The notes beneath the pieces were generated by a model. That model did not search any database, had not been told where the DNA came from, and saw nothing but the letters and a program-made list of their open reading frames with translations. The position numbers were made by a program, and so were the translations under genes. A stretch of 64,000 bases of DNA from Eledone cirrhosa (Eukaryota): NCBI GenBank assembly GCA_964016885.1, contig OZ024741.1:403806001-403870000 (forward strand), written 5' to 3'. Numbering within the stretch: position 1 is the stretch's first letter; every line of letters starts with the position of its first letter. This document shows, piece after piece, positions 34,639-59,976 of this stretch.

Positions 34639-34881
34639 TCACAATTTCCCTCCCCCCCACCCCCACACACCACCATAGCCTATTCGACCAATCAAACCTA
34701 GCATGCCATTTCCACTGCTGCTGCTGCTACTACCTGCCTAACTAACTCTCTCCTCCTCTGGCGCATCCCAACACACCCTGCCATTACCCCACCACCACTG
34801 TCCTTCTAGCCCTCAATTTTCCCACCGTTAGGGATGGATGAGCTGGGAATACACGAGCAACTCTGACTCAATAGATGAAAT

Positions 34882-37800
34882 ATGAATCTGCGAGCTACCA
34901 AGCACCCACGTGAAGCGCCAACCCAGAGACCCTCCCCTACGAGTGTCGACAAATGCCCAAAACTCCGAGTTGGTACCATCAATGTAGGCTCAATGAAAGG
35001 AAGAGCAGGAGAAATCGTAGAAATGCTAGAGCGAAAGGAAGTTGATGTATGCTGTGTGCAAGAGACTAGATGGAGAGGAGGGTCTGCTAGAGTCCTTGTA
35101 GGAAAAAGCCAGTGCTACAAATTTTTCTGGGTGGGAAATGACGATGGGATGGGTGGTGTAGGTATACTATTAGCTGACAAGTGGGTAGATAAAGTAATCT
35201 CAGTGTACAGGGTAAATGCAAGAATCATTAAACTCAGACTAGTCCTGAATAAGACAATTACCACAATAATATCAGCTTACGCACCCCAATCGGGGCTGCC
35301 AGACGAACTTAAGGATAGGTTTTACGAGTCCCTAATACACACTACTGCTCTAACAGACGACAAGGACTTCCTAATCATTGCAGGAGATTTTAACGGACAC
35401 GTAGGTAAACACTGCGACGGCTTCAATAGAGTACATGGAGGCCATGGAGTTGGCACAAGGAATGAGGAAGGATTCAGACTTCTAGAATTCTGCGACGCCA
35501 ATGACATGTCGATATGTAACACAAACTTTAAAAAACCCGACAACCACCTGATCACCTATAGATCAGGGGAGCACTCTAGTCAGTTAGATTTTATCCTCAT
35601 CAGAGGACGTGACAGATGGACGGTCGTAAACACAAAAGCCTTCCCTAGTGAGGAATGTACATCCCAACATAGCTTAGTTGTCAGCGACCTCACGGTCAGA
35701 ACTAGACGAGCCCTGAAACAGAGGCCAACCTGGAGAAGAAAGATCTGGAAGCTGAAAGTCCCCTCAACCAGTAACAGATTTAAAGATATTTTACTCAACG
35801 CCTACGACAGTAAAGAAGAACAGATAGAGACATTTAACGTAGAAGAGAACTGGGAGTTCCTAAAAAATAACTTACTAGAGGCGACGGATGAGGTTTGTGG
35901 CTGGAGTAAGACCTCAAGCAGGAGGAGAGTGACTTGGTGGTGGAACAATAAGGTAGATGAAGCAGTCAAGGCCAAGAGACAGGCATGGAAAGAATGGAAG
36001 AACGGGGGGAGCAGGGTACATTACATAGAGACCAAGAGGGAAGCTAGGCGACAAGTATACTTAGCTAGGAGGGAAGCAGAGGATAGAAAATTCAAGCATG
36101 TTTTACAACGTGAGGACCAGAAACAGGAGGTATTCAAGATTGCGAGGCAGTGTGTCAGAGATAGTTGTGATGTCATTGGAGAGAAGTGTATCCGGAATGA
36201 TAAAGGTGAGCTTGCCCTCACAAGTGCTGAGAAGAAAGATGCATGGAAGAGTCATTATGATAGATTACTAAATGAGGAGAATGCATGGGAAGAAGAGACC
36301 CTACCCCACGTAGACCCTATAGAGGGACCAGCAGTACAAGTCAGCGGCAGCGTAGTAAGTAAGGCAATCAGAGATATGAAGATAGGGAAGGCAACCGGTC
36401 CATCGGGTATAGCTGCCGAGATGCTGAAGGCATCTGGGTCTGTAGGTCACACTATAACCACACGTATCGTTAACCAGGTAATACTAGAGGGGGCCATACC
36501 AAAAGATTGGTGCAGTAGCATCATTGTCAACTGCTACAAAGGTAAAGGCGATGCACTAGATAGAGGAAACTATAGAGGTATAAAGTTGATGGACCAGGTC
36601 ATGAAAGTAACAGAAAGAGTTATAGCACAGCTGATTAGGGACCGGGTGAATATAGACGAGATGCAATTTGGGTTTGTTCCAGGGAAAGGCACCACTGATG
36701 CGCTCTTCCTTGTGAGGCAATTACAGGAAAAGTACCTAGCTAAAAGTAAGCCACTCTACTTGGCATTTGTCGACCTTGAGAAAGCCTTTGACAGAGTTCC
36801 ACGTGCAGTAATCTGGTGGGCTCTTAGAAAACTAGGAGTAGATGAATGGCTTGTGAAAGCGGTACAAGCCATGTATAGGGGAGCAGTCAGCAAAGTTAGG
36901 ATTGGCAATGAGTATAGCGAGGAATTTAGCGTACAGGTTGGGGTCCACCAGGGCTCTGTTCTTAGCCCTCTCCTGTTCATCATAGTCCTGCAGGCAATAA
37001 CGGAGGAGTTTAAGACCGGATGCCCATGGGAACTCCTGTATGCTGATGACCTCGCACTCATAGCTGAATCTATGGTAGAACTAGAGAATAAATTCCAAAC
37101 CTGGAAGCAGGGACTAGAGAGAAAGGGCCTCAAAGTCAACATGACAAAGACTAAGGTCCTTATAAGTAGACGAGAAAACAGAACCCAGATCCCCTCAGGG
37201 AAATGGCCTTGCTCAGTATGTAGGAAAGGTGTAGGTAGGAACTCCATTCTTTGCCCCAAATGCAAACAATGGGTACACAAGAGATGTAGCGGGATCTCAG
37301 GAAGCTTAATTAAGAATGTAGGATTCACATGCAGCAGCTGTGCTGAAACAGCAAGCAAACAGCCACAGGAAACAAGTACCACCAATCTCTGGGAGGGCCC
37401 TGTAGAAACAGTAGACAGCTTCTGCTACCTAGGTGACCGAATTAGCAACGGAGGTGGGTGCTCAGAAAGTACAATAACTAGGGTAAGAACGGGATGGAAG
37501 AAGTTTAGGGAACTACTACCACTGCTAGCTGCAAAAGGCTTCTCCCTCAGAATGAAAGGCAGACTGTATGATGCGTGTATCCGAACAGCGATGTTGCATG
37601 GTAGTGAGACCTGGGCGCTGAAGGTGGAAGACTTACGTAGATTAGAGAGAAACGAAGCCTGCATGCTCCGATGGATGTGTAACAGTAATATACGTGAACG
37701 ACAAAGCATAAATGAATTGAGAGAGAGACTGAGCATAAGAGGAATCAAATGCTGCGTGCAGGAGAGGCGGTTACGCTGGTATGGACATGTGATGCGTATG

Positions 37801-38001
37801 AAGGATGACAGCTGCATAAAAAGGTGCAGAGCACTAGAAGTTGATGGAAACCGCGGAGTGGGGAGACCCAAGATGACTTGGGATGAGGTGATAAAAGCCG
37901 ACCTTACCCAACTACACCTCTCAAAGTCAATGACACACGACCGTGACTTCTGGCGTCACGCAGTAATACAGGGTACCCGACCTCCCATGGGTACATGCTG
38001 A
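34882..38001 (+). CDS. LINE ORF2-type protein: APE endonuclease + reverse transcriptase with inserted PHD-like zinc finger
   Basis: APE motifs GTINVG, CVQETRW, SAYAP, GDFNGH, LDFIL and SQHSLV. RT motifs GKATGPSG, NYRGIKL, QFGF, FVDLEKAFD, GVHQGSVLSP, LYADDL and FCYLG. RTE-type C-terminus RRLRWYGHVMR...GRPK. No stops or frameshifts. Confidence 0.95.
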   Translation: MNLRATKHPREAPTQRPSPTSVDKCPKLRVGTINVGSMKGRAGEIVEMLERKEVDVCCVQETRWRGGSARVLVGKSQCYKFFWVGNDDGMGGVGILLADKWVDKVISVYRVNARIIKLRLVLNKTITTIISAYAPQSGLPDELKDRFYESLIHTTALTDDKDFLIIAGDFNGHVGKHCDGFNRVHGGHGVGTRNEEGFRLLEFCDANDMSICNTNFKKPDNHLITYRSGEHSSQLDFILIRGRDRWTVVNTKAFPSEECTSQHSLVVSDLTVRTRRALKQRPTWRRKIWKLKVPSTSNRFKDILLNAYDSKEEQIETFNVEENWEFLKNNLLEATDEVCGWSKTSSRRRVTWWWNNKVDEAVKAKRQAWKEWKNGGSRVHYIETKREARRQVYLARREAEDRKFKHVLQREDQKQEVFKIARQCVRDSCDVIGEKCIRNDKGELALTSAEKKDAWKSHYDRLLNEENAWEEETLPHVDPIEGPAVQVSGSVVSKAIRDMKIGKATGPSGIAAEMLKASGSVGHTITTRIVNQVILEGAIPKDWCSSIIVNCYKGKGDALDRGNYRGIKLMDQVMKVTERVIAQLIRDRVNIDEMQFGFVPGKGTTDALFLVRQLQEKYLAKSKPLYLAFVDLEKAFDRVPRAVIWWALRKLGVDEWLVKAVQAMYRGAVSKVRIGNEYSEEFSVQVGVHQGSVLSPLLFIIVLQAITEEFKTGCPWELLYADDLALIAESMVELENKFQTWKQGLERKGLKVNMTKTKVLISRRENRTQIPSGKWPCSVCRKGVGRNSILCPKCKQWVHKRCSGISGSLIKNVGFTCSSCAETASKQPQETSTTNLWEGPVETVDSFCYLGDRISNGGGCSESTITRVRTGWKKFRELLPLLAAKGFSLRMKGRLYDACIRTAMLHGSETWALKVEDLRRLERNEACMLRWMCNSNIRERQSINELRERLSIRGIKCCVQERRLRWYGHVMRMKDDSCIKRCRALEVDGNRGVGRPKMTWDEVIKADLTQLHLSKSMTHDRDFWRHAVIQGTRPPMGTC

Positions 38002-38282
38002 AGCATATAAACAATATGCCCCCCCCCCCACCGCAAGGTGGTCGTGGAGGTGCCACGGCAAAAAAGCACCCAGCCCACACTGTAAAGTGGACGTGTAGGC
38101 GCCACGAAAAAGCACCCAGCACTCACTGTAAATGAGGTTGGTGTTAGGAAGGGCATCCAGCTGTAGAAATCAAGCCAGATCAGTTCCTGTATGAGCAAGG
38201 CATGGTCAGCCGACCAGACACTGCCCACAACAGGACAACCCGTCTAACCCATGCTAGCGTGGAAGAACGGACGTAAAACGGT

Positions 38283-38300
38283 GATGATGATGATGATGAT
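38283..38300 (+). repeat. (GAT)6 3' tail of RTE copy 1
   Basis: ...AAAACGGT-GATGATGATGATGATGAT-CCTATTG; the last GAT is also the first GAT of a satellite B monomer. Confidence 0.9.
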
Positions 38301-41300
38301 CCTATTGTCTCTGTGATATAGCTGATTAGGTAGAGTGATAGATCCTAGTGTCTCTGTTATATAGTTGATTAGTTAGAGTGATAGATCCTAGTGTCTCTGT
38401 GATATAGTTGATTAGTTAGAGTGATAGATCCTAGTGTCTCTGTGATATAGTTGATTAGTTAGAGTGATAGATCCTAGTGTCTCTGTGATATAGTTGATTA
38501 GTTAGAGTGATAGATCCTAGTGTCTCTGTGATATAGTTGATTAGTTAGAGTGATAGTTCCTCGTGTCTCTGTGATATAGTTGATTAGTTAGATTGATAGA
38601 TCCTAGTGTCTCTGTGATATGGTTGATTAGTTAGAGTGATAGATACTAGTGTCTCTGTGATATAGCTGATTAGTTACAGTGATAGATCCTAGTGTCTCTG
38701 TGATATAGCTGATTAGTTAGATTGATAGATCCTAGTGTCTCTGTGATATAGTTGATTAGTTAGAGTGATAGATCCTAGTGTCTCTGTGATATAGCTGATT
38801 AGTTAGAGTGATAGATCCTAGTGTCTCTGTGATATAGTTGATTAGTTAGAGTGATAGATCCTAGTGTCTCTGTGATACAGTTGATTAGTTAGAGTGATAG
38901 ATCCTAGTGTCTCTGTGATATAGTTGATTAGTTAGAGTGATAGATCCTAGTGTCACTGTGATATAGTTGATTATATAGAATGATAGATCCTAGTGTCTCT
39001 GTGATATAGCTGATTAGTTACAGTGATAGATCCTAATGTCTCTGTGATATAGTTGATTAGTTAGAGTGACAGATCCTAGTGTCTCTGTGATATAGCTGAT
39101 TAGTTAGAGTGATAGATCCTAGTGTTTCTGTGATATAGTTGATTAGTTAGAGTGATAAATCTTAGTGTCTCTGTGATATGGTTGATTAGTTAGAGTGATA
39201 GATCCTAGTGTCTCTGTGATACAGTTGATTAGTTAGAGTGATAGATCCTAGTGTCTCTGTGATATAGTTGATTAGTTAGAGTGATAGATCCTAGTGTCTC
39301 TGTGATATAGCCGATTAGTCAGAGTGATAGATCCTAGTGTCTCTGTGATATGGTTGATTAGTTAGAGTGATAGATCCTAATGTCTCTGTGATATAGCCGA
39401 TTAGTCAGAGTGATAGATCCTAGTGTCTCTGTGATATGATTGATTAGTTAGAGTGATAGATGCTAGTGGCACTGTGATATAGGTGATTAGTTAGAGTGAT
39501 AGTTCCTAGTGTCTCTCTGATATAGTTGATTAGTTAGAGTGATAGATCCTAGTGTCTCTGTGATATAGTTGATTAGTTAGAGTGATAGCTCCTAGTGTCT
39601 CTGTGATATAGTTGATTAGTTAGAGTGATAGATCCTAGTGTCACTGTGATATAGTTGATTATATAGAGTGATAGATCCTAGTGTCTCTGTGATATAGTTG
39701 ATTAGTTAGAGTGATAGATACTAGTGTCTCTGATATAGTTGATTAGTTAGAGTGATAGATCCTAGTGTCTCTGTGATATGGTTGATTAGTTAGAGTGATA
39801 GATCCTAGTGTCTCTGTTATATAGCTGATTAGTTAGAGTGATAGATCCTAGTGTCTCTGTGATATGGTTGATTAGTTAGAGTGATAGATCCTAGTGTCTC
39901 TGTGATATGGTTGATTAGCTAGAGTGATAGATCCTAGTGTTTCTGTGATATAGTTGATTAGTTAGAGTGATAGATCCTAGTGTCTCTGTGATATGGTTGA
40001 TTAGTTAGAGTGATAGATCCTAGTGTTTCTGTGATATAGTTGATTAGTTAGAGTGATAGATCCTAGTGTCTCTGTGATATAGCTGATTAGTTAGAGTGAT
40101 AGATCCTAGTGTCTCTGTGATATAGTTGATTAGTTAGAGTGATAGATCCTAGTGTCTTTGTGATATGGTCGATTAGTTAGAGTGATAGATCCTAGTGTTT
40201 CTGTGATATGGTTGATTATATAGAGTGATAGATCCTAGTGTCTCTGTGATATAGCTGATTAGTTAGAGTGATAGATCCTAGTGTTTCTGTGATATAGTTG
40301 ATTAGTTAGAGTGATAGATCCTAGTGTCTTTGTGATATGGTCGATTAGTTAGAGTGATAGATCCTAGTGTCTCTGTGATATGGTTGATTAATTAGAGTGA
40401 TAGATCCTAGTGTCTCTGTGATATAGCTGATTAGTTAGAGTGATAGATCCTAGTGTCTCTGTGATATAGTTGATTAGTTAGAGTGATAGATCCTAGTGTT
40501 TCTATGATATAGTTGATTATTTAGAGTGATAGATCCTAGTGTCTCTGTGATATAGCTGAGTAGTTAGAGTGATAGATCCTAGTGTTTCTGTGATATGGTT
40601 GATTAGTTAGAGTGATAGATCCTAGTGTCTCTGTGATATGGTTGATTAATTAGAGTGATAGATCCTAGTGTCTCTGTGATATAGCTGATTAGTTAGAGTG
40701 ATAGATCCTAGTGTCTCTGTGATATAGTTGATTAGTTAGAGTGATAGATCCTAGTGTTTCTGTGATATAGTTGATTATTTAGAGTGATAGATCCTAGTGT
40801 CTCTGTGATATAGCTGAGTAGTTAGAGTGATAGATCCTAGTGTCTCTGTGATATAGTTAATTAGTTAGAGTGATAGATCCTAGTATCTCTGTGATATAGT
40901 TAATTAGTTAGAGTGATAGATCCTAGTGTCTCTGTGATATAGTTGATTAGTTAGAGTGATAGATCCTAGTGTCTCTGTTATATAGCTGATTAGTTAGAGT
41001 GATAGATCCTAGTGTCTCAGTGATATAGTTGATTAGTTAGAGTGATAGATCCTAGTGTCTCTGTGATATAGCCGATTAGTCAGAGTGATAGAACCTAGTG
41101 TCTCTGTTATATAGGTGATTAGTTAGAGTGATAGATCCTAGTGTCTCTGTGATATAGTTAATTAGATGGAGTGATAGATCCTAGTGTCTCTGTGATATAG
41201 CTGATTAGTTAGAGTGATAGATCCTTGTCTCTCTGTGTTATAGTTGATTAGTTAGAGTGATAGATCCTAGTGTCTCTGTGATATAGTTGATTAGTTAGAG

Positions 41301-44300: not shown

Positions 44301-45135
44301 TTAGTTGGAGTGATAGATCCAAGTGTCTCTGTGACATAGTTGAATAGGTAGAGTGATAGATCCTAGTGTCTCTGTGATATAGTTGATTAGTTAGAGTGAT
44401 AGATCCTAGTGTCTCTTTGATATAGCTGATTTGTTCGAGTGATAGATCCTAGTGTCTCTGTGATATAGTTGATTAGTTAGAGTGATAGATCCTAGTGTCT
44501 CTGTTATATAGCTGATTAGTTAGAGTGATAGATCCTAGTGTCTCTGTTATATAGCTGATTAGTTAGAGTGATAGATCCTAGTGTCTCTGTTATATAGCTG
44601 ATTAGTTGGAGTGATAGATCCTAGTGTCTCTCTCATATGGTTGATTAGTTCGAGTGATAGATCCTAGTGTCTCTGTGATATAGTTGATTAGTTAGAGTGA
44701 TAGATCCTAGTGTCACTGTGATATAGCCGATTAGTCAGAGTGATAGATCCTAGTGTCTCTGTGATAAGGTTGATTAGTTAGAGTGATAGATTCTAGTGTC
44801 TCTGTGATATAGTTGATTAGTTAGAGTGATAGATCCTAGTGTCTCTGTGATATAGTTGATTAGTTAGAGTGATAGTACCTAGTGTCACTGTGATATAGCC
44901 GATTAGTCAGAGTGATAGATCCTAGTGTCTCTGTGATATAGTTGATTAGTTAGAGTGATAGATCCTAGTGTCTCTGTGATATAGTTGATTAGTTAGTGTG
45001 ATAGTTCCTAGTGTCTCTGTGATATAGTTCATTATTTAGTGTGATAGATCCTAGTGTCTCTGTGATATAGTTGATTAGTTAGAGTGATAGATCCTAGTGT
45101 CTCTGTGATATTGTTGATTAGTTAGAGTGATAGAT
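38301..45135. repeat. 43-bp satellite B, left block (consensus GATCCTAGTGTCTCTGTGATATAGYTGATTAGTTAGAGTGATA)
   Basis: GATCCTAG recurs every 43 bp (e.g. 38341, 38384). About 159 monomers with scattered substitutions and almost no indels (one 2-bp deletion near 39730). Confidence 0.98.
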
Positions 45136-48100
45136 GGGATGGGTGGTGTAGGTATACTATTAGCTGACAAGTGGGTAGATAAAGTAATCTCAGTGTACAG
45201 GGTAAATGCAAGAATCATTAAACTCAGACTAGTCCTGAATAAGACAATTACCACAATAATATCAGCTTACGCACCCCAATCGGGGCTGCCAGACGAACTT
45301 AAGGATAGGTTTTACGAGTCCCTAATACACACTACTGCTCTAACAGACGACAAGGACTTCCTAATCATTGCAGGAGATTTTAACGGACACGTAGGTAAAC
45401 ACTGCGACGGCTTCAATAGAGTACATGGAGGCCATGGAGTTGGCACAAGGAATGAGGAAGGATTCAGACTTCTAGAATTCTGCGACGCCAATGACATGTC
45501 GATATGTAACACAAACTTTAAAAAACCCGACAACCACCTGATCACCTATAGATCAGGGGAGCACTCTAGTCAGTTAGATTTTATCCTCATCAGAGGACGT
45601 GACAGATGGACGGTCGTAAACACAAAAGCCTTCCCTAGTGAGGAATGTACATCCCAACATAGCTTAGTTGTCAGCGACCTCACGGTCAGAACTAGACGAG
45701 CCCTGAAACAGAGGCCAACCTGGAGAAGAAAGATCTGGAAGCTGAAAGTCCCCTCAACCAGTAACAGATTTAAAGATATTTTACTCAACGCCTACGACAG
45801 TAAAGAAGAACAGATAGAGACATTTAACGTAGAAGAGAACTGGGAGTTCCTAAAAAATAACTTACTAGAGGCGACGGATGAGGTTTGTGGCTGGAGTAAG
45901 ACCTCAAGCAGGAGGAGAGTGACTTGGTGGTGGAACAATAAGGTAGATGAAGCAGTCAAGGCCAAGAGACAGGCATGGAAAGAATGGAAGAACGGGGGGA
46001 GCAGGGTACATTACATAGAGACCAAGAGGGAAGCTAGGCGACAAGTATACTTAGCTAGGAGGGAAGCAGAGGATAGAAAATTCAAGCATGTTTTACAACG
46101 TGAGGACCAGAAACAGGAGGTATTCAAGATTGCGAGGCAGTGTGTCAGAGATAGTTGTGATGTCATTGGAGAGAAGTGTATCCGGAATGATAAAGGTGAG
46201 CTTGCCCTCACAAGTGCTGAGAAGAAAGATGCATGGAAGAGTCATTATGATAGATTACTAAATGAGGAGAATGCATGGGAAGAAGAGACCCTACCCCACG
46301 TAGACCCTATAGAGGGACCAGCAGTACAAGTCAGCGGCAGCGTAGTAAGTAAGGCAATCAGAGATATGAAGATAGGGAAGGCAACCGGTCCATCGGGTAT
46401 AGCTGCCGAGATGCTGAAGGCATCTGGGTCTGTAGGTCACACTATAACCACACGTATCGTTAACCAGGTAATACTAGAGGGGGCCATACCAAAAGATTGG
46501 TGCAGTAGCATCATTGTCAACTGCTACAAAGGTAAAGGCGATGCACTAGATAGAGGAAACTATAGAGGTATAAAGTTGATGGACCAGGTCATGAAAGTAA
46601 CAGAAAGAGTTATAGCACAGCTGATTAGGGACCGGGTGAATATAGACGAGATGCAATTTGGGTTTGTTCCAGGGAAAGGCACCACTGATGCGCTCTTCCT
46701 TGTGAGGCAATTACAGGAAAAGTACCTAGCTAAAAGTAAGCCACTCTACTTGGCATTTGTCGACCTTGAGAAAGCCTTTGACAGAGTTCCACGTGCAGTA
46801 ATCTGGTGGGCTCTTAGAAAACTAGGAGTAGATGAATGGCTTGTGAAAGCGGTACAAGCCATGTATAGGGGAGCAGTCAGCAAAGTTAGGATTGGCAATG
46901 AGTATAGCGAGGAATTTAGCGTACAGGTTGGGGTCCACCAGGGCTCTGTTCTTAGCCCTCTCCTGTTCATCATAGTCCTGCAGGCAATAACGGAGGAGTT
47001 TAAGACCGGATGCCCATGGGAACTCCTGTATGCTGATGACCTCGCACTCATAGCTGAATCTATGGTAGAACTAGAGAATAAATTCCAAACCTGGAAGCAG
47101 GGACTAGAGAGAAAGGGCCTCAAAGTCAACATGACAAAGACTAAGGTCCTTATAAGTAGACGAGAAAACAGAACCCAGATCCCCTCAGGGAAATGGCCTT
47201 GCTCAGTATGTAGGAAAGGTGTAGGTAGGAACTCCATTCTTTGCCCCAAATGCAAACAATGGGTACACAAGAGATGTAGCGGGATCTCAGGAAGCTTAAT
47301 TAAGAATGTAGGATTCACATGCAGCAGCTGTGCTGAAACAGCAAGCAAACAGCCACAGGAAACAAGTACCACCAATCTCTGGGAGGGCCCTGTAGAAACA
47401 GTAGACAGCTTCTGCTACCTAGGTGACCGAATTAGCAACGGAGGTGGGTGCTCAGAAAGTACAATAACTAGGGTAAGAACGGGATGGAAGAAGTTTAGGG
47501 AACTACTACCACTGCTAGCTGCAAAAGGCTTCTCCCTCAGAATGAAAGGCAGACTGTATGATGCGTGTATCCGAACAGCGATGTTGCATGGTAGTGAGAC
47601 CTGGGCGCTGAAGGTGGAAGACTTACGTAGATTAGAGAGAAACGAAGCCTGCATGCTCCGATGGATGTGTAACAGTAATATACGTGAACGACAAAGCATA
47701 AATGAATTGAGAGAGAGACTGAGCATAAGAGGAATCAAATGCTGCGTGCAGGAGAGGCGGTTACGCTGGTATGGACATGTGATGCGTATGAAGGATGACA
47801 GCTGCATAAAAAGGTGCAGAGCACTAGAAGTTGATGGAAACCGCGGAGTGGGGAGACCCAAGATGACTTGGGATGAGGTGATAAAAGCCGACCTTACCCA
47901 ACTACACCTCTCAAAGTCAATGACACACGACCGTGACTTCTGGCGTCACGCAGTAATACAGGGTACCCGACCTCCCATGGGTACATGGTGAAGCATATAA
48001 ACAATATGCCCCCCCCCCCCACCGCAAGGTGTTCGTGGAGGTGCCACGGCAAAAAAGCACCCAGCCCACACTGTAAAGTGGACGTGTAGGCGCCACGAAA

Positions 48101-48291
48101 AAGCACCCAGCACTCACTGTAAATGAGGTTGGTGTTAGGAAGGGCATCCAGCTGTAGAAATCAAGCCAGATCAGTTCCTGTATGAGCAAGGCATGGTCAG
48201 CCGACCAGACACTGCCCACAACAGGACAACCCGTCTAACCCATGCTAGCGTGGAAGAACGGACGTAAAACGGTGATGATGATGATGATGAT
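45133..48291 (+). mobile_element. RTE-clade LINE copy 2, 5'-truncated, nearly identical to copy 1 (35143-38300)
   Basis: Matches copy 1 at offset 9990 from 45133. It begins at a 3-bp GAT microhomology with the satellite and has the same (GAT)6 tail (48274-48291). The only differences I saw were 47988 (C>G), one extra C in the poly-C run and 48032 (G>T). Confidence 0.95.
45139..47991 (+). pseudogene. N-terminally truncated EN-RT ORF of copy 2 (lacks residues 1-89; remainder open)
   Basis: The ORF-track start at 45127 is a satellite-derived GTG. The first element-derived in-frame ATG is at 45139 (M90 of copy 1). The GTINVG and QET endonuclease motifs are missing. Confidence 0.85.
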
Positions 48292-51200
48292 CCTATTGTC
48301 TCTGTGATATAGCTGATTAGGTAGAGTGATAGATCCTAGTGTCTCTGTTATATAGTTGATTAGTTAGAGTGATAGATCCTAGTGTCTCTGTGATATAGTT
48401 GATTAGTTAGAGTGATAGATCCTAGTGTCTCTGTGATATAGTTGATTAGTTAGAGTGATAGATCCTAGTGTCTCTGTGATATAGTTGATTAGTTAGAGTG
48501 ATAGATCCTAGTGTCTCTGTGATATAGTTGATTAGTTAGAGTGATAGTTCCTCGTGTCTCTGTGATATAGTTGATTAGTTAGATTGATAGATCCTAGTGT
48601 CTCTGTGATATGGTTGATTAGTTAGAGTGATAGATACTAGTGTCTCTGTGATATAGCTGATTAGTTACAGTGATAGATCCTAGTGTCTCTGTGATATAGC
48701 TGATTAGTTAGATTGATAGATCCTAGTGTCTCTGTGATATAGTTGATTAGTTAGAGTGATAGATCCTAGTGTCTCTGTGATATAGCTGATTAGTTAGAGT
48801 GATAGATCCTAGTGTCTCTGTGATATAGTTGATTAGTTAGAGTGATAGATCCTAGTGTCTCTGTGATACAGTTGATTAGTTAGAGTGATAGATCCTAGTG
48901 TCTCTGTGATATGGTTGATTAGTTGGAGTGATAGATCCTAGTGTCTCTGTTATATAGCTGATTAGTTAGAGAGATAGATCCTAGTGTCTCTGTGATATAG
49001 CTGATTAGTTAGAGTGATAGATCCTAGTGTCTCTGTGATATGGTTGATTAGTTGGAGTGATAGATCCTTGTGTCTCTGTTATATAGCTGATTAGTTAGAG
49101 TGATAGATCCTAGTGTCACTGTGATATAGTTGATTAGTTAGAGTGATAGATCCTAGTGTCTCTGTGATATAGTTGATTAGTTAGAGTGATAGATCCTAGT
49201 GTCTCTGTGATATGGTTGATTAGTTAGAGTGATAGATGCTAGTGTCACTGTGATATAGCCAATTAGTCAGAGTGATAGATCCTAGTGTCTCTGTTATATA
49301 GTTGATTAGTTAGAGTGATAGATCCTAGTGTCTCTGTGATATAGTTGATTAGTTAGAGTGATAGATCCTAGTGTCTCTGTTATATAGCTGATTAGTTAGA
49401 GTGATAGATACTAGTGTCTCTGTTATATAGCGGATTAGTTAGAGTGATAGATCCTAGTGTCTCTGTGATATAGCTGATTAGTTAGAGTGATAGATCCTAG
49501 TGTCTCTGTTATATAGCTGATTAGTTAGAGTGATAGATCCTAGTGTCTCTGTTATATAGCTGATTAGTTAGAGTGATAGATCCTAGTGTCTCTGTGATAT
49601 GGTTGATTAGTTAGAGTGATAGATCCTAGTGTCTCTGTGATATGGTTGATTAGTTAGAGTGATAGTTCCTAGTGTCTCTGTGATATAGTTGATTAGTTAG
49701 AGTGATAGATCCTAGTGTCTCTGTGATATAGTTGATTAGTTAGAGTGATAGATCCTAGTGTCACTGTGATATAGCCGATTAGTCAGAGTGATAGATCCTA
49801 GTGTCTCTGTGATATAGTTGATTAGTTAGAGTGATAGATCCTAGTGTCTCTGTGATATAGCTGATTAGTTAGAGTGATAGTTCCTAGTGTCTCTGTGATA
49901 TAGTTGATTAGTTAGAGTGATAGATCCTAGTGTCACTGTGATATAGTTGATTAGTTAGAGTGATAGATCCTAGTGTCTCTCTGATATAGCTGATTAGTTA
50001 GAGTGATACATCCTAATGTCTCTGTGAGATAGCTGATTAGTTAGAGTTATAGATCCTAGTGTCTCTGTGATATAGCTGATTAGTTAGAGTGATAGATCCT
50101 AGTGTCTATGTGATATGGTTGATTAGTTAGTGTGATAGATCCTAGTGTCTCTGTGATATAGCTGATTAGTTAGAGTGATATATCCTAGTGTCTCTGTGAT
50201 ATAGTTGATTAGTTAGAGTGATAGATCCAAGTGTCTCTGTGATATAGCTGATTAGTTAGAGTGATAGATCCTAGTGTCTCTGTGATATAGCTGATTAGTT
50301 AGAGTGATAGATCCTAGTGTCTCTGTGATATAGTTGATTAGTTAGAGTGATAGATCCTAGTGTCTCTGTGATATAGCTGATTAGTTAGAGGGATAGATCC
50401 TAGTGTCTCTGTGATATAGCTGATTAGTTAGAGTGATAGATCCTAGTGTCTCTGTTATATAGCTGAGTAGTTAGAGTGATAGATCCTAGTGTCTCTGTTA
50501 TATAGCTGATTAGTTAGAGTGATAGATCCTAGTGTCTCTGTGATATAGCTGATTATTTAGTGTGATAGATCCTAGTGTCTCTGTTATATAGCTGATTAGT
50601 TAGAGTGATAGATCCTAGTGTCTCTGTGATATAGCTGATTAGTTAGATTGATAGATGCTAGTGTCTCTGTTATATAGCTGATTAGTTAGAGTGATAGATC
50701 CTAGTGTCTCTGTGATATAGTTGATTAGTTAGAGTGATAGATCCTAATGTTTCTGTTATATTCTTGATTAGTTAGAGTGATAGATCCTAGTGTCTCTGTG
50801 ACATAGTTGAATAGTTAGAGTGACAGATCCTAGTGTCTCTGTGATATAGTTGATTAGTTAGAGTGATAGATCCTAGTGTCTCTGTGATATAGTTGATTAG
50901 TTAGAGTGATAGATCCTAGTGTCTCTGTGATATAGTTGATTAGTTAGAGTGATAGATCCTAGTGTCTCTGTGATATAGGTGATTAGTTAGAGTGATAGAT
51001 CCTAGTGTCTCTGTGATATGGTTGATTAGTTAGAGTGATAGATCCTAGTGTCTCTGTGATATAGTTGATTAGTTAGAGTGATAGATCCTAGTGTCTCTGT
51101 GATATAGTTGATTAGTTAGCGTGATAGTTTCTAGTGTCTCTGTGATATAGTTCATTAGTTAGTGTGATAGATCCTAGTGTCTCTGTGATATAGCCGATTA

Positions 51201-54200
51201 GTCAGAGTGATAGAACCTAGTGTCTCTGTTATATAGGTGATTAGTTAGAGTGATAGATCCTAGTGTCTCTGTGATATAGTTAATTAGATAGAGTGATAGA
51301 TCCTAGTGTTTCTGTGATATAGCTGATTAGTTAGAGTGATAGATCCTTGTCTCTCTGTGTTATAGTTGATTAGTTAGAGTGATAGATCCTAGTGTCTCTG
51401 TGATATAGTTGATTAGTTAGAGTGATATATCCAAGTGTCTCTGTGATATAGTTGATTAGTTAGAGTGATAGATCCTAGTGTCTCTGTGATATAGCTGATT
51501 AGTTAGAGTGATAGATCCTAGTGTCTCTGTGATATAGCTGATTAGTTAGAGTGATAGATCCTAGTGTCTCTGTGATATAGCTGATTAGTTAGAGTGATAG
51601 ATCCTAGTGTCTCTGTTATATAGCTGAGTAGTTAGAGTGATAGATCCTAGTGTCTCTGTTATATAGCTGATTAGTTAGAGTGATAGATCCTAGTGTCTCT
51701 GTGATATAGCTGATTATTTAGTGTGATAGATCCTAGTGTCTCTGTTATATAGCTGATTAGTTAGAGTGATAGATCCTAGTGTCTCTGTGATATAGCTGAT
51801 TAGTTAGATTGATAGATCCTAGTGTCTCTGTTATATAGCTGATTAGTTAGAGTGATAGATCCTAGTGTCTCTGTGATATAGTTGATTAGTTAGAGTGATA
51901 GATCCTAATGTTTCTGTTATATACTTGATTAGTTAGAGTGATAGATCCTAGTGTCTCTGTGATATAGTTGATTAGTTAGAGTGATAGATCCTAGTGTCTC
52001 TGTTATATAGCTGATTAGTTAGAGTGATAGATCCTAGTGTCTCTGTTATATAGCTGATTAGTTAGAGTGATAGATCCTAGTGTCTCTGTTATATAGCTGA
52101 TTAGTTGGAGTGATAGATCCTAGTGTCTCTCTCATATGGTTGATTAGTTCGAGTGATAGATCCTAGTGTCTCTGTGATATAGTTGATTAGTTAGAGTGAT
52201 AGATCCTAGTGTCACTGTGATATAGCCGATTAGTCAGAGTGATAGATCCTAGTGTCTCTGTGATAAGGTTGATTAGTTAGAGTGATAGATTCTAGTGTCT
52301 CTGTGATATAGTTGATTAGTTAGAGTGATAGATCCTAGTGTCTCTGTGATATAGTTGATTAGTTAGAGTGATAGTACCTAGTGTCACTGTGATATAGCCG
52401 ATTAGTCAGAGTGATAGATCCTAGTGTCTCTGTGATATAGTTGATTAGTTAGAGTGATAGATCCTAGTGTCTCTGTGATATAGTTGATTAGTTAGTGTGA
52501 TAGTTCCTAGTGTCTCTGTGATATAGTTCAATATTTAGTGTGATAGATCCTAGTGTCTCTGTGATATAGTTGATTAGTTAGAGTGATAGATCCTAGTGTC
52601 TCTGTGATATTGTTGATTAGTTAGAGTGATAGATCTTAGTGTCTCTGAGATATAGTTGATTAGTTAGAGTGATAGATCCTAGTGTCTCTGTGATATAGCC
52701 GATTAGTCAGAGTGATAGAACCTAGTGTCTCTGTGATATAGTTGATTAGTTAGAGTGATAGATCCTAGTGTCTCTGTGATATAGTTGATTAGTTAGAGTG
52801 ATAGATCCAAGTGTCTCTGTGATATAGTTGATTAGTTAGAGTGATAGATCCTAGTGTCTCTGTGATATAGCTGATTAGTTAGAGTGATAGATCCTAGTGT
52901 CTCTGTGATATAGCTGATTAGTTAGAGTGATAGATCCTAGTGTCTCTGTGATATAGCTGATTAGTTAGAGTGATAGATCCTAGTGTCTCTGTTATATAGC
53001 TGAGTAGTTAGAGTGATAGTTCCTAGTGTCTCTGTTATATAGCTGATTAGTTAGAGTGATAGATCCTAGTGTCTCTGTGATATAGTTCAATATTTAGTGT
53101 GATAGATCCTAGTGTCTCTGTGATATAGTTGATTAGTTAGAGTGATAGATCCTAGTGTCTCTGTGATATTGTTGATTAGTTAGAGTGATAGATCTTAGTG
53201 TCTCTGTTATATAGCTGATTAGTTAGAGTGATAGATCCTAGTGTCTCTGTGATATAGTTCAATATTTAGTGTGATAGATCCTAGTGTCTCTGTGATATAG
53301 TTGATTAGTTAGAGTGATAGATCCTAGTGTCTCTGTGATATTGTTGATTAGTTAGAGTGATAGATCTTAGTGTCTCTGAGATATAGTTGATTAGTTAGAG
53401 TGATAGATCCTAGTGTCTCTGTGATATGGTTGATTAGTTGCAGTGATAGATCCTAGTGTCTCTGTTATATAGCTGATTAGTTAGAGAGATAGATCCTAGT
53501 GTCTCTGTGATATAGCTGATTAGTTAGAGTGATAGATCCTAGTGTCTCTGTGATATGGTTGATTAGTTGGAGTGATAGATCCTTGTGTCTCTGTTATATA
53601 GCTGATTAGTTAGAGTGATAGATCCTAGTGTCACTGTGATATAGTTGATTAGTTAGAGTGATAGATCCTAGTGTCTCTGTGATATAGTTGATTAGTTAGA
53701 GTGATAGATCCTAGTGTCTCTGTGATATAGTTGATTAGTTAGAGTGATAGATCCTAGTGTCTCTGTAATATGGTTGATTAGTTAGAGTGATAGATGCTAG
53801 TGTCACTGTGATATAGCCAATTAGTCAGAGTGATAGATCCTAGTGTCTCTGTTATATAGTTGATTAGTTAGAGTGATAGATCCTAGTGTCTCTGTGATAT
53901 AGTTGATTAGTTAGAGTGATAGATCCTAGTGTCTCTGTTATATAGCTGATTAGTTAGAGTGATAGATACTAGTGTCTCTGTTATATAGCGGATTAGTTAG
54001 AGTGATAGATCCTAGTGTCTCTGTGATATAGCTGATTAGTTAGAGTGATAGATCCTAGTGTCTCTGTTATATAGCTGATTAGTTAGAGTGATAGATCCTA
54101 GTGTCTCTGTTATATAGCTGATTAGTTAGAGTGATAGATCCTAGTGTCTCTGTCATATGGTTGATTAGTTAGAGTGATAGATCCTAGTGTCTCTGTGATA

Positions 54201-57200
54201 TGGTTGATTAGTTAGAGTGATAGTTCCTAGTGTCTCTGTGATATAGTTGATTAGTTAGAGTGATAGATCCTAGTGTCTCTGTGATATAGTTGATTAGTTA
54301 GAGTGATAGATCCTAGTGTCACTGTGATATAGCCGATTAGTCAGAGTGATAGATCCTAGTGTCTCTGTGATATAGTTGATTAGTTAGAGTGATAGATCCT
54401 AGTGTCTCTGTGATATAGCTGATTAGTTAGAGTGATAGTTCCTAGTGTCTCTGTGATATAGTTGATTAGTTAGAGTGATAGATCCTAGTGTCACTGTGAT
54501 ATAGTTGATTAGTTAGAGTGATAGATCCTAGTGTCTCTCTGATATAGCTGATTAGTTAGAGTGATACATCCTAATGTCTCTGTGAGATAGCTGATTAGTT
54601 AGAGTTATAGATCCTAGTGTCTCTGTGATATAGCTGATTAGTTAGAGTGATAGATCCTAGTGTCTATGTGATATGGTTGATTAGTTAGTGTGATAGATCC
54701 TAGTGTCTCTGTGATATAGCTGATTAGTTAGAGTGATATATCCTAGTGTCTCTGTGATATAGTTGATTAGTTAGAGTGATAGATCCAAGTGTCTCTGTGA
54801 TATAGCTGATTAGTTAGAGTGATAGATCCTAGTGTCTCTGTGATATAGCTGATTAGTTAGAGTGATAGATCCTAGTGTCTCTGTGATATAGTTGATTAGT
54901 TAGAGTGATAGATCCTAGTGTCTCTGTGATATAGCTGATTAGTTAGAGGGATAGATCCTAGTGTCTCTGTGATATAGCTGATTAGTTAGAGTGATAGATC
55001 CTAGTGTCTCTGTTATATAGCTGAGTAGTTAGAGTGATAGATCCTAGTGTCTCTGTTATATAGCTGATTAGTTAGAGTGATAGATCCTAGTGTCTCTGTG
55101 ATATAGCTGATTATTTAGTGTGATAGATCCTAGTGTCTCTGTTATATAGCTGATTAGTTAGAGTGATAGATCCTAGTGTCTCTGTGATATAGCTGATTAG
55201 TTAGATTGATAGATGCTAGTGTCTCTGTTATATAGCTGATTAGTTAGAGTGATAGATCCTAGTGTCTCTGTGATATAGTTGATTAGTTAGAGTGATAGAT
55301 CCTAATGTTTCTGTTATATTCTTGATTAGTTAGAGTGATAGATCCTAGTGTCTCTGTGACATAGTTGAATAGTTAGAGTGACAGATCCTAGTGTCTCTGT
55401 GATATAGTTGATTAGTTAGAGTGATAGATCCTAGTGTCTCTGTGATATAGTTGATTAGTTAGAGTGATAGATCCTAGTGTCTCTGTGATATAGTTGATTA
55501 GTTAGAGTGATAGATCCTAGTGTCTCTGTGATATAGGTGATTAGTTAGAGTGATAGATCCTAGTGTCTCTGTGATATGGTTGATTAGTTAGAGTGATAGA
55601 TCCTAGTGTCTCTGTGATATAGTTGATTAGTTAGAGTGATAGATCCTAGTGTCTCTGTGATATAGTTGATTAGTTAGCGTGATAGTTTCTAGTGTCTCTG
55701 TGATATAGTTCATTAGTTAGTGTGATAGATCCTAGTGTCTCTGTGATATAGCCGATTAGTCAGAGTGATAGAACCTAGTGTCTCTGTTATATAGGTGATT
55801 AGTTAGAGTGATAGATCCTAGTGTCTCTGTGATATAGTTAATTAGATAGAGTGATAGATCCTAGTGTTTCTGTGATATAGCTGATTAGTTAGAGTGATAG
55901 ATCCTTGTCTCTCTGTGTTATAGTTGATTAGTTAGAGTGATAGATCCTAGTGTCTCTGTGATATAGTTGATTAGTTAGAGTGATATATCCAAGTGTCTCT
56001 GTGATATAGTTGATTAGTTAGAGTGATAGATCCTAGTGTCTCTGTGATATAGCTGATTAGTTAGAGTGATAGATCCTAGTGTCTCTGTGATATAGCTGAT
56101 TAGTTAGAGTGATAGATCCTAGTGTCTCTGTGATATAGCTGATTAGTTAGAGTGATAGATCCTAGTGTCTCTGTTATATAGCTGAGTAGTTAGAGTGATA
56201 GATCCTAGTGTCTCTGTTATATAGCTGATTAGTTAGAGTGATAGATCCTAGTGTCTCTGTGATATAGCTGATTATTTAGTGTGATAGATCCTAGTGTCTC
56301 TGTTATATAGCTGATTAGTTAGAGTGATAGATCCTAGTGTCTCTGTGATATAGCTGATTAGTTAGATTGATAGATCCTAGTGTCTCTGTTATATAGCTGA
56401 TTAGTTAGAGTGATAGATCCTAGTGTCTCTGTGATATAGTTGATTAGTTAGAGTGATAGATCCTAATGTTTCTGTTATATACTTGATTAGTTAGAGTGAT
56501 AGATCCTAGTGTCTCTGTGATATAGTTGATTAGTTAGAGTGATAGATCCTAGTGTCTCTGTTATATAGCTGATTAGTTAGAGTGATAGATCCTAGTGTCT
56601 CTGTTATATAGCTGATTAGTTAGAGTGATAGATCCTAGTGTCTCTGTTATATAGCTGATTAGTTGGAGTGATAGATCCTAGTGTCTCTCTCATATGGTTG
56701 ATTAGTTCGAGTGATAGATCCTAGTGTCTCTGTGATATAGTTGATTAGTTAGAGTGATAGATCCTAGTGTCACTGTGATATAGCCGATTAGTCAGAGTGA
56801 TAGATCCTAGTGTCTCTGTGATAAGGTTGATTAGTTAGAGTGATAGATTCTAGTGTCTCTGTGATATAGTTGATTAGTTAGAGTGATAGATCCTAGTGTC
56901 TCTGTGATATAGTTGATTAGTTAGAGTGATAGTACCTAGTGTCACTGTGATATAGCCGATTAGTCAGAGTGATAGATCCTAGTGTCTCTGTGATATAGTT
57001 GATTAGTTAGAGTGATAGATCCTAGTGTCTCTGTGATATAGTTGATTAGTTAGTGTGATAGTTCCTAGTGTCTCTGTGATATAGTTCAATATTTAGTGTG
57101 ATAGATCCTAGTGTCTCTGTGATATAGTTGATTAGTTAGAGTGATAGATCCTAGTGTCTCTGTGATATTGTTGATTAGTTAGAGTGATAGATCTTAGTGT

Positions 57201-59976
57201 CTCTGAGATATAGTTGATTAGTTAGAGTGATAGATCCTAGTGTCTCTGTGATATAGCCGATTAGTCAGAGTGATAGAACCTAGTGTCTCTGTGATATAGT
57301 TGATTAGTTAGAGTGATAGATCCTAGTGTCTCTGTGATATAGTTGATTAGTTAGAGTGATAGATCCAAGTGTCTCTGTGATATAGTTGATTAGTTAGAGT
57401 GATAGATCCTAGTGTCTCTGTGATATAGCTGATTAGTTAGAGTGATAGATCCTAGTGTCTCTGTGATATAGCTGATTAGTTAGAGTGATAGATCCTAGTG
57501 TCTCTGTGATATAGCTGATTAGTTAGAGTGATAGATCCTAGTGTCTCTGTTATATAGCTGAGTAGTTAGAGTGATAGTTCCTAGTGTCTCTGTTATATAG
57601 CTGATTAGTTAGAGTGATAGATCCTAGTGTCTCTGTGATATAGTTCAATATTTAGTGTGATAGATCCTAGTGTCTCTGTGATATAGTTGATTAGTTAGAG
57701 TGATAGATCCTAGTGTCTCTGTGATATTGTTGATTAGTTAGAGTGATAGATCTTAGTGTCTCTGTTATATAGCTGATTAGTTAGAGTGATAGATCCTAGT
57801 GTCTCTGTGATATAGTTCAATATTTAGTGTGATAGATCCTAGTGTCTCTGTGATATAGTTGATTAGTTAGAGTGATAGATCCTAGTGTCTCTGTGATATT
57901 GTTGATTAGTTAGAGTGATAGATCTTAGTGTCTCTGAGATATAGTTGATTAGTTAGAGTGATAGATCCTAGTGTCTCTGTGATATGGTTGATTAGTTGCA
58001 GTGATAGATCCTAGTGTCTCTGTTATATAGCTGATTAGTTAGAGAGATAGATCCTAGTGTCTCTGTGATATAGCTGATTAGTTAGAGTGATAGATCCTAG
58101 TGTCTCTGTGATATGGTTGATTAGTTGGAGTGATAGATCCTTGTGTCTCTGTTATATAGCTGATTAGTTAGAGTGATAGATCCTAGTGTCACTGTGATAT
58201 AGTTGATTAGTTAGAGTGATAGATCCTAGTGTCTCTGTGATATAGTTGATTAGTTAGAGTGATAGATCCTAGTGTCTCTGTGATATAGTTGATTAGTTAG
58301 AGTGATAGATCCTAGTGTCTCTGTAATATGGTTGATTAGTTAGAGTGATAGATGCTAGTGTCACTGTGATATAGCCAATTAGTCAGAGTGATAGATCCTA
58401 GTGTCTCTGTTATATAGTTGATTAGTTAGAGTGATAGATCCTAGTGTCTCTGTGATATAGTTGATTAGTTAGAGTGATAGATCCTAGTGTCTCTGTTATA
58501 TAGCTGATTAGTTAGAGTGATAGATACTAGTGTCTCTGTTATATAGCGGATTAGTTAGAGTGATAGATCCTAGTGTCTCTGTGATATAGCTGATTAGTTA
58601 GAGTGATAGATCCTAGTGTCTCTGTTATATAGCTGATTAGTTAGAGTGATAGATCCTAGTGTCTCTGTTATATAGCTGATTAGTTAGAGTGATAGATCCT
58701 AGTGTCTCTGTCATATGGTTGATTAGTTAGAGTGATAGATCCTAGTGTCTCTGTGATATGGTTGATTAGTTAGAGTGATAGTTCCTAGTGTCTCTGTGAT
58801 ATAGTTGATTAGTTAGAGTGATAGATCCTAGTGTCTCTGTGATATAGTTGATTAGTTAGAGTGATAGATCCTAGTGTCACTGTGATATAGCCGATTAGTC
58901 AGAGTGATAGATCCTAGTGTCTCTGTGATATAGTTGATTAGTTAGAGTGATAGATCCTAGTGTCTCTGTGATATAGCTGATTAGTTAGAGTGATAGTTCC
59001 TAGTGTCTCTGTGATATAGTTGATTAGTTAGAGTGATAGATCCTAGTGTCACTGTGATATAGTTGATTAGTTAGAGTGATAGATCCTAGTGTCTCTCTGA
59101 TATAGCTGATTAGTTAGAGTGATACATCCTAATGTCTCTGTGAGATAGCTGATTAGTTAGAGTTATAGATCCTAGTGTCTCTGTGATATAGCTGATTAGT
59201 TAGAGTGATAGATCCTAATGTCTATGTGATATGGTTGATTAGTTAGTGTGATAGATCCTAGTGTCTCTGTGATATAGCTGATTAGTTAGAGTGATAGATC
59301 CTAATGTCTCTGTGATATAGCTGATTAGTTAGAGTGATAGATCCTAATGTCTCTGTGATATAGTTGATTAGTTAGAGTGATAGATCCTTGTGTCTCTGTG
59401 ATATAGTTGAATAGTTAGAGTGATAGATCCTAGTGTCTCTGTGATATAGCTGATTAGTTAGAGTGATAGATCCTAATGTCTCTGTGATATAGCTGATTAG
59501 TTAGAGTGATAGATCCTAGTGTCTCTGTGATATGGTTGATTAGTTAGAGTGATAGATCCTTGTGTCTCTGTGATATAGTTGATTAGTTAGAGTGATAGAT
59601 CCTAGTGTCTCTGTGATATAGTTAATTAGTTAGAGTGATAGATCCTTGTGTCTCTGTAATATAGTTGATTAGTTAGAGTGGTAGATCCTAGTGTCTCTGT
59701 GATATAGTTGATTAGTTAGAGTGATAGATCCTTGTGTCTCTGTGACATAGTTGAATAGTTAGTGTGATAGATCCTAGTTTCTCTGTGATATAGTTGATTA
59801 GTTAGAGTGATAGATCCTAGTGTCTCTGTGATATAGTTGATTAGTTAGAGTGATAGATCCTAATGTATAGGTGATATAGTTGATTAGTTAGAGTGATAGA
59901 TCCTAGTGTCTCTGTGATATGGTTGATTAGTTAGAGTGATAGATCCTAGTGTCTCTGTGATATAGTTGATTAGTTA
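48292..59976. repeat. 43-bp satellite B, right block, with a 4558-bp (106-monomer) higher-order repeat
   Basis: Rare variants recur at exact 4558-bp spacing: AG-CGG-ATTAG at 49431/53989/58547, CTCATATGG at 52131/56689, TTCTTG at 50761/55319. The array ends at ...GATTAGTTA, 59976. Confidence 0.98.

Follow-up and report, generated by a model that had tools for sequence, protein, structure and literature searches.

Local duplication of a LINE and its satellite flank within a 43-bp satellite array of Eledone cirrhosa

In the 64,000-nt stretch of the Eledone cirrhosa assembly analysed here (G000:C2:403,806,001-403,870,000, hereafter the window), the 3' part of a LINE and the satellite units behind it are present twice in one array. 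The match of the second copy (copy 2) to the first (copy 1) and its flank is far above chance and is real in the assembly, and we regard it as a local duplication of a known kind. The alignment supports the view that copy 1 was the template for the tail and the 14-unit flank of copy 2. Our preferred explanation, which holds about half of our confidence, is that the host copied the DNA of copy 1's 3' part together with 14 satellite units (3.78 kb) in one step; that host DNA processes of one sort or another were responsible we consider quite probable. These gradings are judgements and not computed values. The features on which the argument depends are as follows.

1..34640, + strand: 62 monomers, most of them 504-609 bp long, forming the 5' array of copy 1
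34879..38001, + strand: the one open frame of copy 1, 1040 aa between stops
35143..35145, + strand: GAT microhomology in copy 1 where copy 2 starts
38283..38300, + strand: (GAT)6 tail of copy 1, the last GAT doubling as satellite-unit start
38298..38899, + strand: block P (A0-A13), the putative donor flank, 14 units of the 43-bp satellite
38879..38921, + strand: donor-side end of the copied tract, a 43-bp window of perfect identity
42553..45132, + strand: block Y' (A99-A158), the 5' flank of copy 2, first and most diverged higher-order-repeat copy
45133..45135, + strand: 5' junction of copy 2, 3-bp GAT common to satellite and LINE
45133..48291, + strand: copy 2, 5'-truncated LINE without the monomer array and the first 88 codons, ending in (GAT)6
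47988..48032, + strand: sites where copy 2 departs from copy 1 (47988G, extra C, 48032T)
48289..48890, + strand: block P as copied (B0-B13), followed by neither tail nor poly(A)
48870..48912, + strand: 3' junction of the copied segment, a homologous, in-register return to resident block X
48891..59976, + strand: resident array X-Y-Z-X-Y-Z-X, a 106-unit (4,558-bp) higher-order repeat
53320..53448, + strand: empty-site model (units 23T, 5T/17A, start of X)

The LINE family, the satellite array and the two copies

Copy 1 is a 38-kb (38.3-kb) element carrying 62 monomers of its own upstream of a single frame, which encodes an APE-type endonuclease, a reverse transcriptase (RT) and a PHD-like finger. 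Its monomer array, in which monomer variants are doubled 4.5 kb apart, begins at position -19, where it is joined to the 43-bp satellite. Because monomer sequence lies upstream of all 13 copies found by a 5'-UTR pattern (0.27-3.7 kb in the other 12), positions 1-34640 are taken as the LINE's own 5' region and not as host satellite; a reading of this region as a second host satellite, with copy 1 a recombinant of two arrays, was rejected since monomers precede dispersed family copies too. A single ORF with endonuclease and RT and a short tandem-repeat tail are features of the RTE clade, and the element has both, with an APE endonuclease and a (GAT)n tail; going by this architecture, we take it to be a putative RTE element. 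Some of these clade features are also given in the accessible portions of PMC9115989 and PMC6007223, the latter reporting target-site duplications of 7-15 bp for the clade.

The family is a young one with many copies (10,395 exact 3' 40-mers in the assembly; genome-wide counts here rest on exact sequence patterns) and inserts throughout the genome, mostly into (TA)n. Ordinary insertions are near-blunt; of 24 insertions on C1 that could be scored, 14 have 5'-to-3' offsets between +1 and +5, and most targets there are microsatellite or satellite. No 5' truncation hot spot at 35143 was seen among 30 copies selected to reach at least 35146, whose 5' ends were scattered. LINE clusters at C1 58-64 and 158-160 Mb were considered as satellite arrays and set aside, as their targets are microsatellite or unique and their best shared flank is 49 bp of (TA)n.

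The 43-bp satellite extends from about 52.7 kb before the window to position 59976 and makes up 71 kb, or 2.4e-5 of the assembly; the surrounding repeat region measures 113 kb and contains near-identical blocks. Across the whole assembly, a 48-mer and a 25-mer of the satellite have 192 and 727 matches, respectively, every one of them in this array; diverged or very short satellite pieces elsewhere would escape such exact matching. Kilobase-scale duplication is abundant at the locus, with 111 identical runs of at least 8 units and 117 consecutive identical units at offset 106 in the resident array. The 5' flank of copy 2, block Y', differs from Y2 by 8 substitutions and 4 extra units, while Y2 equals Y3; its 3' flank, block X1, differs from the next copy by 3 substitutions, and the two later higher-order-repeat copies differ by 0, 0 and 1. 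By this divergence, the blocks on both sides of copy 2 belong to the oldest repeat copy. An origin of Y' and Y2 in the same event as copy 2 is disfavoured by the substitution counts (8 in 2,408 bp versus 2 in 3,780).

At the base level, 35143-38921 and 45133-48912 are two substitutions and one poly-C base apart: 37998C in copy 1 is 47988G in copy 2, 38041G is 48032T, and the poly-C run of copy 2 near 48009 has one extra C. These differences span 45 bp and all lie left of 38042. Both tails read GGT(GAT)6, and satellite units A0-A13 and B0-B13 are the same letter for letter and in the same order, confirming by exact alignment the first-pass annotation's statement that 48292-48912 reproduces 38301-38921 in order. 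Among 1,493 14-unit blocks of the array, three match A0-A13 with zero mismatches, the next best having 13 and the mean being 37.6, and the junction of tail and satellite occurs exactly twice in the assembly (3.0 Gb). Several statements of the same annotation need to be narrowed. The flank variants it called private also occur, as the same 14 units without a LINE, at G000:C2:403,782,632. The equal tail length holds, both copies having (GAT)6, but is weak evidence, since 14 of 47 dispersed copies have six GAT units as well. The divergence of the flanks beyond the segment likewise stands, beginning at 38922A in copy 1 and 48913G in copy 2, yet the 56 units that precede copy 2 are met again behind it, at B45-B100 and at B151-B206.

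Identity within the LINE is weakly informative, as no more than two substitutions separate copy 1 from 11 of 20 other long copies. Over 35146-37997, however, copy 2 has no difference from copy 1, which is true of two of the 20 only; this rarity favours copying of the whole segment, as far as the alignment can suggest. Copy 2 carries no lineage marker relative to copy 1. Its two substitutions, 47988G and 48032T, have 4 and 6 genomic matches, copy 2 being the sole locus in both lists, and are each found in one copy among 39 and 41 aligned family copies, respectively; their use as sub-lineage markers was rejected, as the genomic matches (7 of 10 loci read) show no sub-lineage. The cluster of differences around the poly-C run may reflect one mutation event or a polishing error.

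Junctions of copy 2 and the proposed copying event

The two ends of copy 2 differ in kind. At the 5' end, a 3-bp GAT is common to satellite and LINE, and at the 3' end the segment returns in register to the resident array through 43 bp of perfect identity, which agrees with the DNA-repair option of the first-pass annotation (one homologous and one microhomology end). The 5' junction has the same unit phase as the tail junction of copy 1; this phase accounts for 2.7% of the chances for a 3-nt microhomology and is much less rare if a window of several bases is allowed. No second tail stands behind the carried flank, where 48912 runs directly into satellite; such a tail is not expected under priming by homology. 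Likewise, no target-site duplication was found around the whole insert, and target bases are lost instead. The order 23T, 5T/17A, X of the empty-site model at 53320-53448 recurs at 57878-58006, and in comparison with both models the site of copy 2 lacks the middle unit, 5T/17A. Copy 2 thus probably replaced at least part of one satellite unit; the loss would amount to 19-62 bp if only 5T/17A was present and to about 18 units if block Z was present, estimates that derive from paralogous blocks and not from an empty allele. One homologous and one microhomology junction, a donor 10 kb away, the absence of an added tail and the loss of target bases are together what a templated insertion shows. 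A plain host duplication would share the 5' junction and both flanks, whereas copy 2 has a 5' junction and a 5' flank of its own. These junctions would be expected from break repair and from homology-primed reverse transcription alike.

Copy 1 is most likely the donor, sitting where it inserted, because block P, together with the units preceding copy 1, roughly follows the order of the LINE-free block; this collinearity is broken by a 4-unit patch at the 5' junction of copy 1. The opposite direction, with copy 2 as donor, was rejected, its flanks belonging to another repeat family. The LINE-free block P (U681-U694, G000:C2:403,782,632-403,783,233) lies outside the window, about 23 kb before it, and a more diverged version lies 11 kb beyond. 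The three perfect copies of block P (LINE-free, copy 1 and copy 2) exit within the same 45 bp by three different continuations. Array 1 contains 26 clean 43-bp windows, 8 of them among its first 23 units, and by our own estimate a common exit would arise by chance roughly one time in ten. A fixed RNA end would explain two of the three exits only if copy 1 were itself a daughter, which is disfavoured because its 5' flank argues against it.

Under our preferred explanation, a break near 45135 in the satellite array would have been followed by resection, and strand invasion by the right end would have targeted the satellite that follows copy 1, a donor 10 kb off that lies in this array in matching orientation. 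Synthesis would then have run leftward across 14 units and the tail into the LINE, copying 3.16 kb of it, until the new strand was released and joined at GAT to the left end. Candidate routes are one-sided invasion, a known mechanism, with its other end closed at a microhomology, or template switching during replication. The outcome would be equivalent if a tandem duplication at a microhomology were followed by contraction of the satellite, and we count this variant with the explanation. Besides the junctions and the near donor, the abundance of kilobase-scale duplication at the locus, including the 4.56-kb repeat and the doubled monomer variants of copy 1, speaks for it, as do the confinement of the satellite to 71 kb, the DNA duplications on C1 and the precedents in maize and a bird satellite discussed below. 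Several observations tell against one-step copying: none of the six plain duplications on C1 described below breaks inside the LINE, the single C1 pair sharing only its 3' side is a mosaic that is better fitted by independent insertion and conversion, the junction phase shared with the tail of copy 1 leans the other way, and a 5' cut with a carried 3' flank is a shape that reverse transcription also gives.

LINE pairs in a second satellite and alternative explanations

An 18-bp satellite on C1 (7.23-9.58 Mb) was surveyed through 40 stretches around listed 3' ends, comprising 43 tails. Six pairs among these 43 LINE 3' ends share the 5' junction and both flanks at distances of 3.8-15 kb; these are plain duplications at the DNA level, and the copying of a LINE with its satellite in this way is accordingly routine here. 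One pair, L123 (C1:8,646,438) and L124 (C1:8,723,103), 77 kb apart, has the 3' flank alone in common. They begin at different points (L123 at the equivalent of 34445, L124 at 35947) and agree without a difference for 1,882 bp, made up of 614 bp of LINE, the tail and 1,268 bp of flank. In the 1,744 bp before this stretch, 6 sites differ (p=0.012 for the split), one of them being 37251C, a family-wide marker present in 13 of 33 copies. An empty paralogue of the L123 site lies nearby. Because the bodies carry different variants, L124 appears to have inserted independently and to have had its 3' end overwritten, with the mosaic body characteristic of gene conversion. Overwriting of this kind also has an RNA version, in which cDNA anneals to a resident copy, as is known from L1; it would predict more simple pairs sharing only the 3' side, and none was found among the 43 tails. 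Pairs sharing the 5' side alone were absent among the 43 3' ends, a number too small to test symmetry and a survey to which tailless copies are invisible. On C1, fixed satellite phases are used by 23 of the 26 plus-strand rows and by all 6 minus-strand rows (32 of the 43 rows, after removal of duplicates and of rows without satellite on both sides).

The L123/L124 pair bears directly on how copy 2 may be read. The first-pass annotation held that copy 2 is not an independent insertion, which overstates the case, as L123 and L124 share 1,268 bp of flank yet differ in their bodies. Copy 2 could have arisen as an independent 5'-truncated insertion at GAT whose 3' end and flank were later overwritten from copy 1 by gene conversion, a possibility that we consider less likely than one-step copying. 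Conversion between two 3.16-kb direct repeats would have two homologous ends and is also host DNA repair, so that only the origin of the LINE body differs from that under one-step copying. The pair on C1 is an in-genome precedent for it, the fixed-phase, near-blunt insertion of the family into satellite fits the way copy 2 begins, the three differences between the copies are all found to the left of 38042, and half of the long copies (10 of 20) lack any variant shared relative to copy 1. Conversion nevertheless requires two events, and only 856 copies in the genome extend 5' as far as the start of copy 2, one per 3.5 Mb; the perfect match over 35146-37997 is, as noted, rare in long copies, and the two substitutions of copy 2 mark no sub-lineage. 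An artefact of assembly or library, with copy 2 absent in reality, is very unlikely in our judgement. The 113-kb repeat region with its near-identical blocks would allow for one, but the 5' junction is a new join with a 3-bp overlap, unlike a misjoin in long repeats, copy 2 has variants of its own, and its flanks Y' and X1 both come from the older repeat copy, as a real insertion site predicts. No piece bridging 45133 was present among the matches listed in the contigs of X1, X2, X4, X5, X7, X8 and X10 (here sources of contigs, not satellite blocks). In X4 and X5, satellite and LINE are present separately and the common LINE variants differ from those of this genome, which is neutral with regard to copy 2.

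It is improbable, in our view, that copy 2 came from a read-through transcript of copy 1 that ended in satellite, was primed by homology without a tail and was cut short at GAT. The arrangement is that of 3' transduction, a full-length source with an intact frame and 5' monomers and a 5'-truncated daughter carrying its 3' flank; polarity and the microhomology at the 5' end match retrotransposition, and in both cases sharing only the 3' side the donor is a long copy that reaches into the 5' monomers, with the recipient downstream. The accessible portions of PMC7265360 and PMC6007223 report RNA-target annealing and 3' transduction for site-specific elements, and those of a review (PMC6947457) propose transduction of satellite by LINEs. 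Read-through RNA should, however, leave satellite at other sites because the family inserts everywhere, and none was seen: no daughter carrying the flank was found at another locus, none of the 727 satellite matches lies outside the array, and the junction is present twice only. Neither orphan tails nor shared unique flanks were found in 47 and 33 sampled dispersed 3' flanks (12 loci overlap), the matches checked in the sample of 47 being other repeat ends. The carried flank also lacks a second tail, near-blunt integration does not explain the loss of 5T/17A unless that unit was never present, and the second case, L124, has a body not derived from its donor. This route thus has no positive support beyond its shape. 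The RT-driven spread of satellite envisaged in the first-pass annotation does not agree with the confinement of all 192 and 727 matches to one array; the genome search that it proposed returned the junction twice only, the outcome that it had itself named as favouring a one-off DNA event, and a shared flank with a different truncation, which it took as a sign of RNA, occurs in L123/L124 with bodies of different origin. Explanations other than these four seem to us highly improbable.

Relationship to described systems and meaning for satellite growth

Host copying of LINEs in satellite arrays and duplications at microhomologies are already described. In a centromere atlas (bioRxiv 10.64898/2026.09.17.752431), 11 LINE copies in a bird satellite are read as one integration followed by host copying, and the likeness to our case lies in near-identical LINE copies on the same strand of one satellite array with a shared flank. 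The six C1 pairs match this host-copying class exactly. The atlas copies share target-site duplications or flanks, whereas copy 2 shares the 3' flank alone and is truncated at a new 5' point within the LINE. The accessible portion of the report on maize CEN10 (PMC4806543) describes a duplication of 22.7 kb in which parts of retrotransposons meet at a 5-nt junction; local duplication, a short microhomology junction inside retrotransposon sequence, higher-order repeats formed by adjacent duplication and the loss of single monomers by homology are common ground, but the maize elements are LTR elements and the duplication is adjacent, whereas here a non-LTR segment of 3.78 kb stands 6.2 kb past the end of its donor. 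The same combination of homologous and microhomology ends, local template and target loss is described for SDSA and FoSTeS/MMBIR in the accessible text of PMC4888836. One-sided invasion leaves this combination too. The homologous end here is a 43-bp satellite unit, the passenger is a LINE, and the comparison is drawn from sequence. L1/SVA 3' transduction (PMC12350158) and R1-type read-through priming (PMC7265360), as far as the available parts of these sources describe them, resemble copy 2 in joining a 5'-truncated element to the 3' flank of a full-length source, and differ from it in that copy 2 is a single local copy without a second tail, a target-site duplication or daughters elsewhere.

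The LINE itself resembles octopus RTE-clade elements such as RTE-2_OV (accessible portions of PMC9115989 and PMC13282606) in its one ORF (1040 aa here versus 1109 aa), endonuclease, RT, zinc finger, short tandem 3' end and membership of a young, high-copy family, a likeness between descriptions only. Its 5' monomer array and PHD-type finger are not among the octopus RTE features described in those portions. In a literature search that most subscription papers lay outside, we found no report of tail-free, homology-primed transduction of satellite by RTE elements, and none of 5' monomer arrays in such elements.

Were the RNA route correct, copy 2 would be a case of tail-free, homology-primed retrotransposition feeding satellite in place, with a bearing on satellite expansion. 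We think it doubtful that read-through RNA of full-length copies is reverse-transcribed, tail-free, into its own satellite by long RNA-DNA homology; in that event a LINE and tens of units would be added and a resident copy sometimes overwritten, both copy 2 and the L123/L124 pair would be products of this process, each lying downstream of a donor with monomers, and the growth of the satellite would be driven locally by RT. As it stands, the copied segment is placed within the array, with no spread of satellite. The finding carries a warning that the same 3' flank with a different 5' truncation inside a satellite is no proof of transduction. As host DNA copying, copy 2 would be an ordinary, well-resolved example of the growth of a satellite array with embedded LINEs.

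Satellite junctions around copy 1 and its block of units

Block P, the 14 units of 43-bp satellite that lie behind the tail of copy 1 (the donor LINE), behind the truncated copy 2 and, LINE-free, elsewhere on the same contig (G000:C2), was compared at its ends, as was the array at the 5' junction of copy 1.

Window 38879-38923; window 48870-48912; G000:C2:403,783,212-403,783,257: endings of the three block P copies
G000:C2:403,805,813-403,805,981: four-unit patch (array units U1220-U1223), immediately upstream of the copy 1 5' junction
Window 60706-61948, minus strand: remnant of a different LINE, broken and with RT sequence in two frames, just beyond the array end

All three copies of block P terminate inside one 45 bp stretch, and the sequence continues differently in each. 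The four-unit patch repeats array units that lie 13 places further upstream, and none of eight paralogous blocks besides this one is followed by it. Possibly it is filler that was copied as copy 1 integrated. The broken remnant beyond the array is presumably CR1-like.

Other insertions of the LINE family

Two features on another sequence of the assembly (G000:C1) concern insertions of this family into satellite.

G000:C1:7,230,000-9,580,000 (fetched stretches L106-L145): 18-bp satellite region with LINE copies
L123:4826-6707 (G000:C1:8,646,438) and L124:4191-6072 (G000:C1:8,723,103): second pair of copies with a common 3' satellite flank

The 18-bp satellite region holds at least 43 LINE 3' ends (32 plus, 11 minus), approximately five times the genome-wide density, with an insertion phase that is fixed on each strand, and it includes six duplicated LINE pairs. 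The L123/L124 copies, separated by 77 kb, have 1,268 bp of 3' satellite flank in common, together with unlike 5' truncations and a mosaic body, and a 72-bp tandem duplication abuts the 5' junction of L124 on its upstream side.

Family copies, arranged head to tail or tail to tail, are also found nested in one another's (GAT)n/(ATC)n tails (L125:221-5449; 3' flanks of L025, L060 and L164). A long copy in L064 (G000:C25:20,784,500-20,794,499) is a near-blunt insertion in yet another tandem repeat, the third, of roughly 41 bp.

ORF and 5' monomers of copy 1

Window 37189-37341 (ORF residues 778-821): PHD-type finger, directly C-terminal to the RT domain
Window 1-34640, starting at -19: 5' region, an array of 500-600-bp monomers

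In the two nearest atlas clusters, about half of the members have such a finger. Each 5' monomer of the LINE contains two or three 98-bp sub-repeats, an arrangement comparable to that of mouse L1 promoter monomers. Copy 1 carries 62 monomers (34.6 kb); the longest run outside it, among the 63 matches listed before the copy 1 locus, is 11, and exact monomer heads number 308 across the genome. Monomer variants in the copy 1 array occur doubled at a spacing of 4.5 kb, which suggests that the array expanded in situ, with the 5' end of a LINE becoming satellite.
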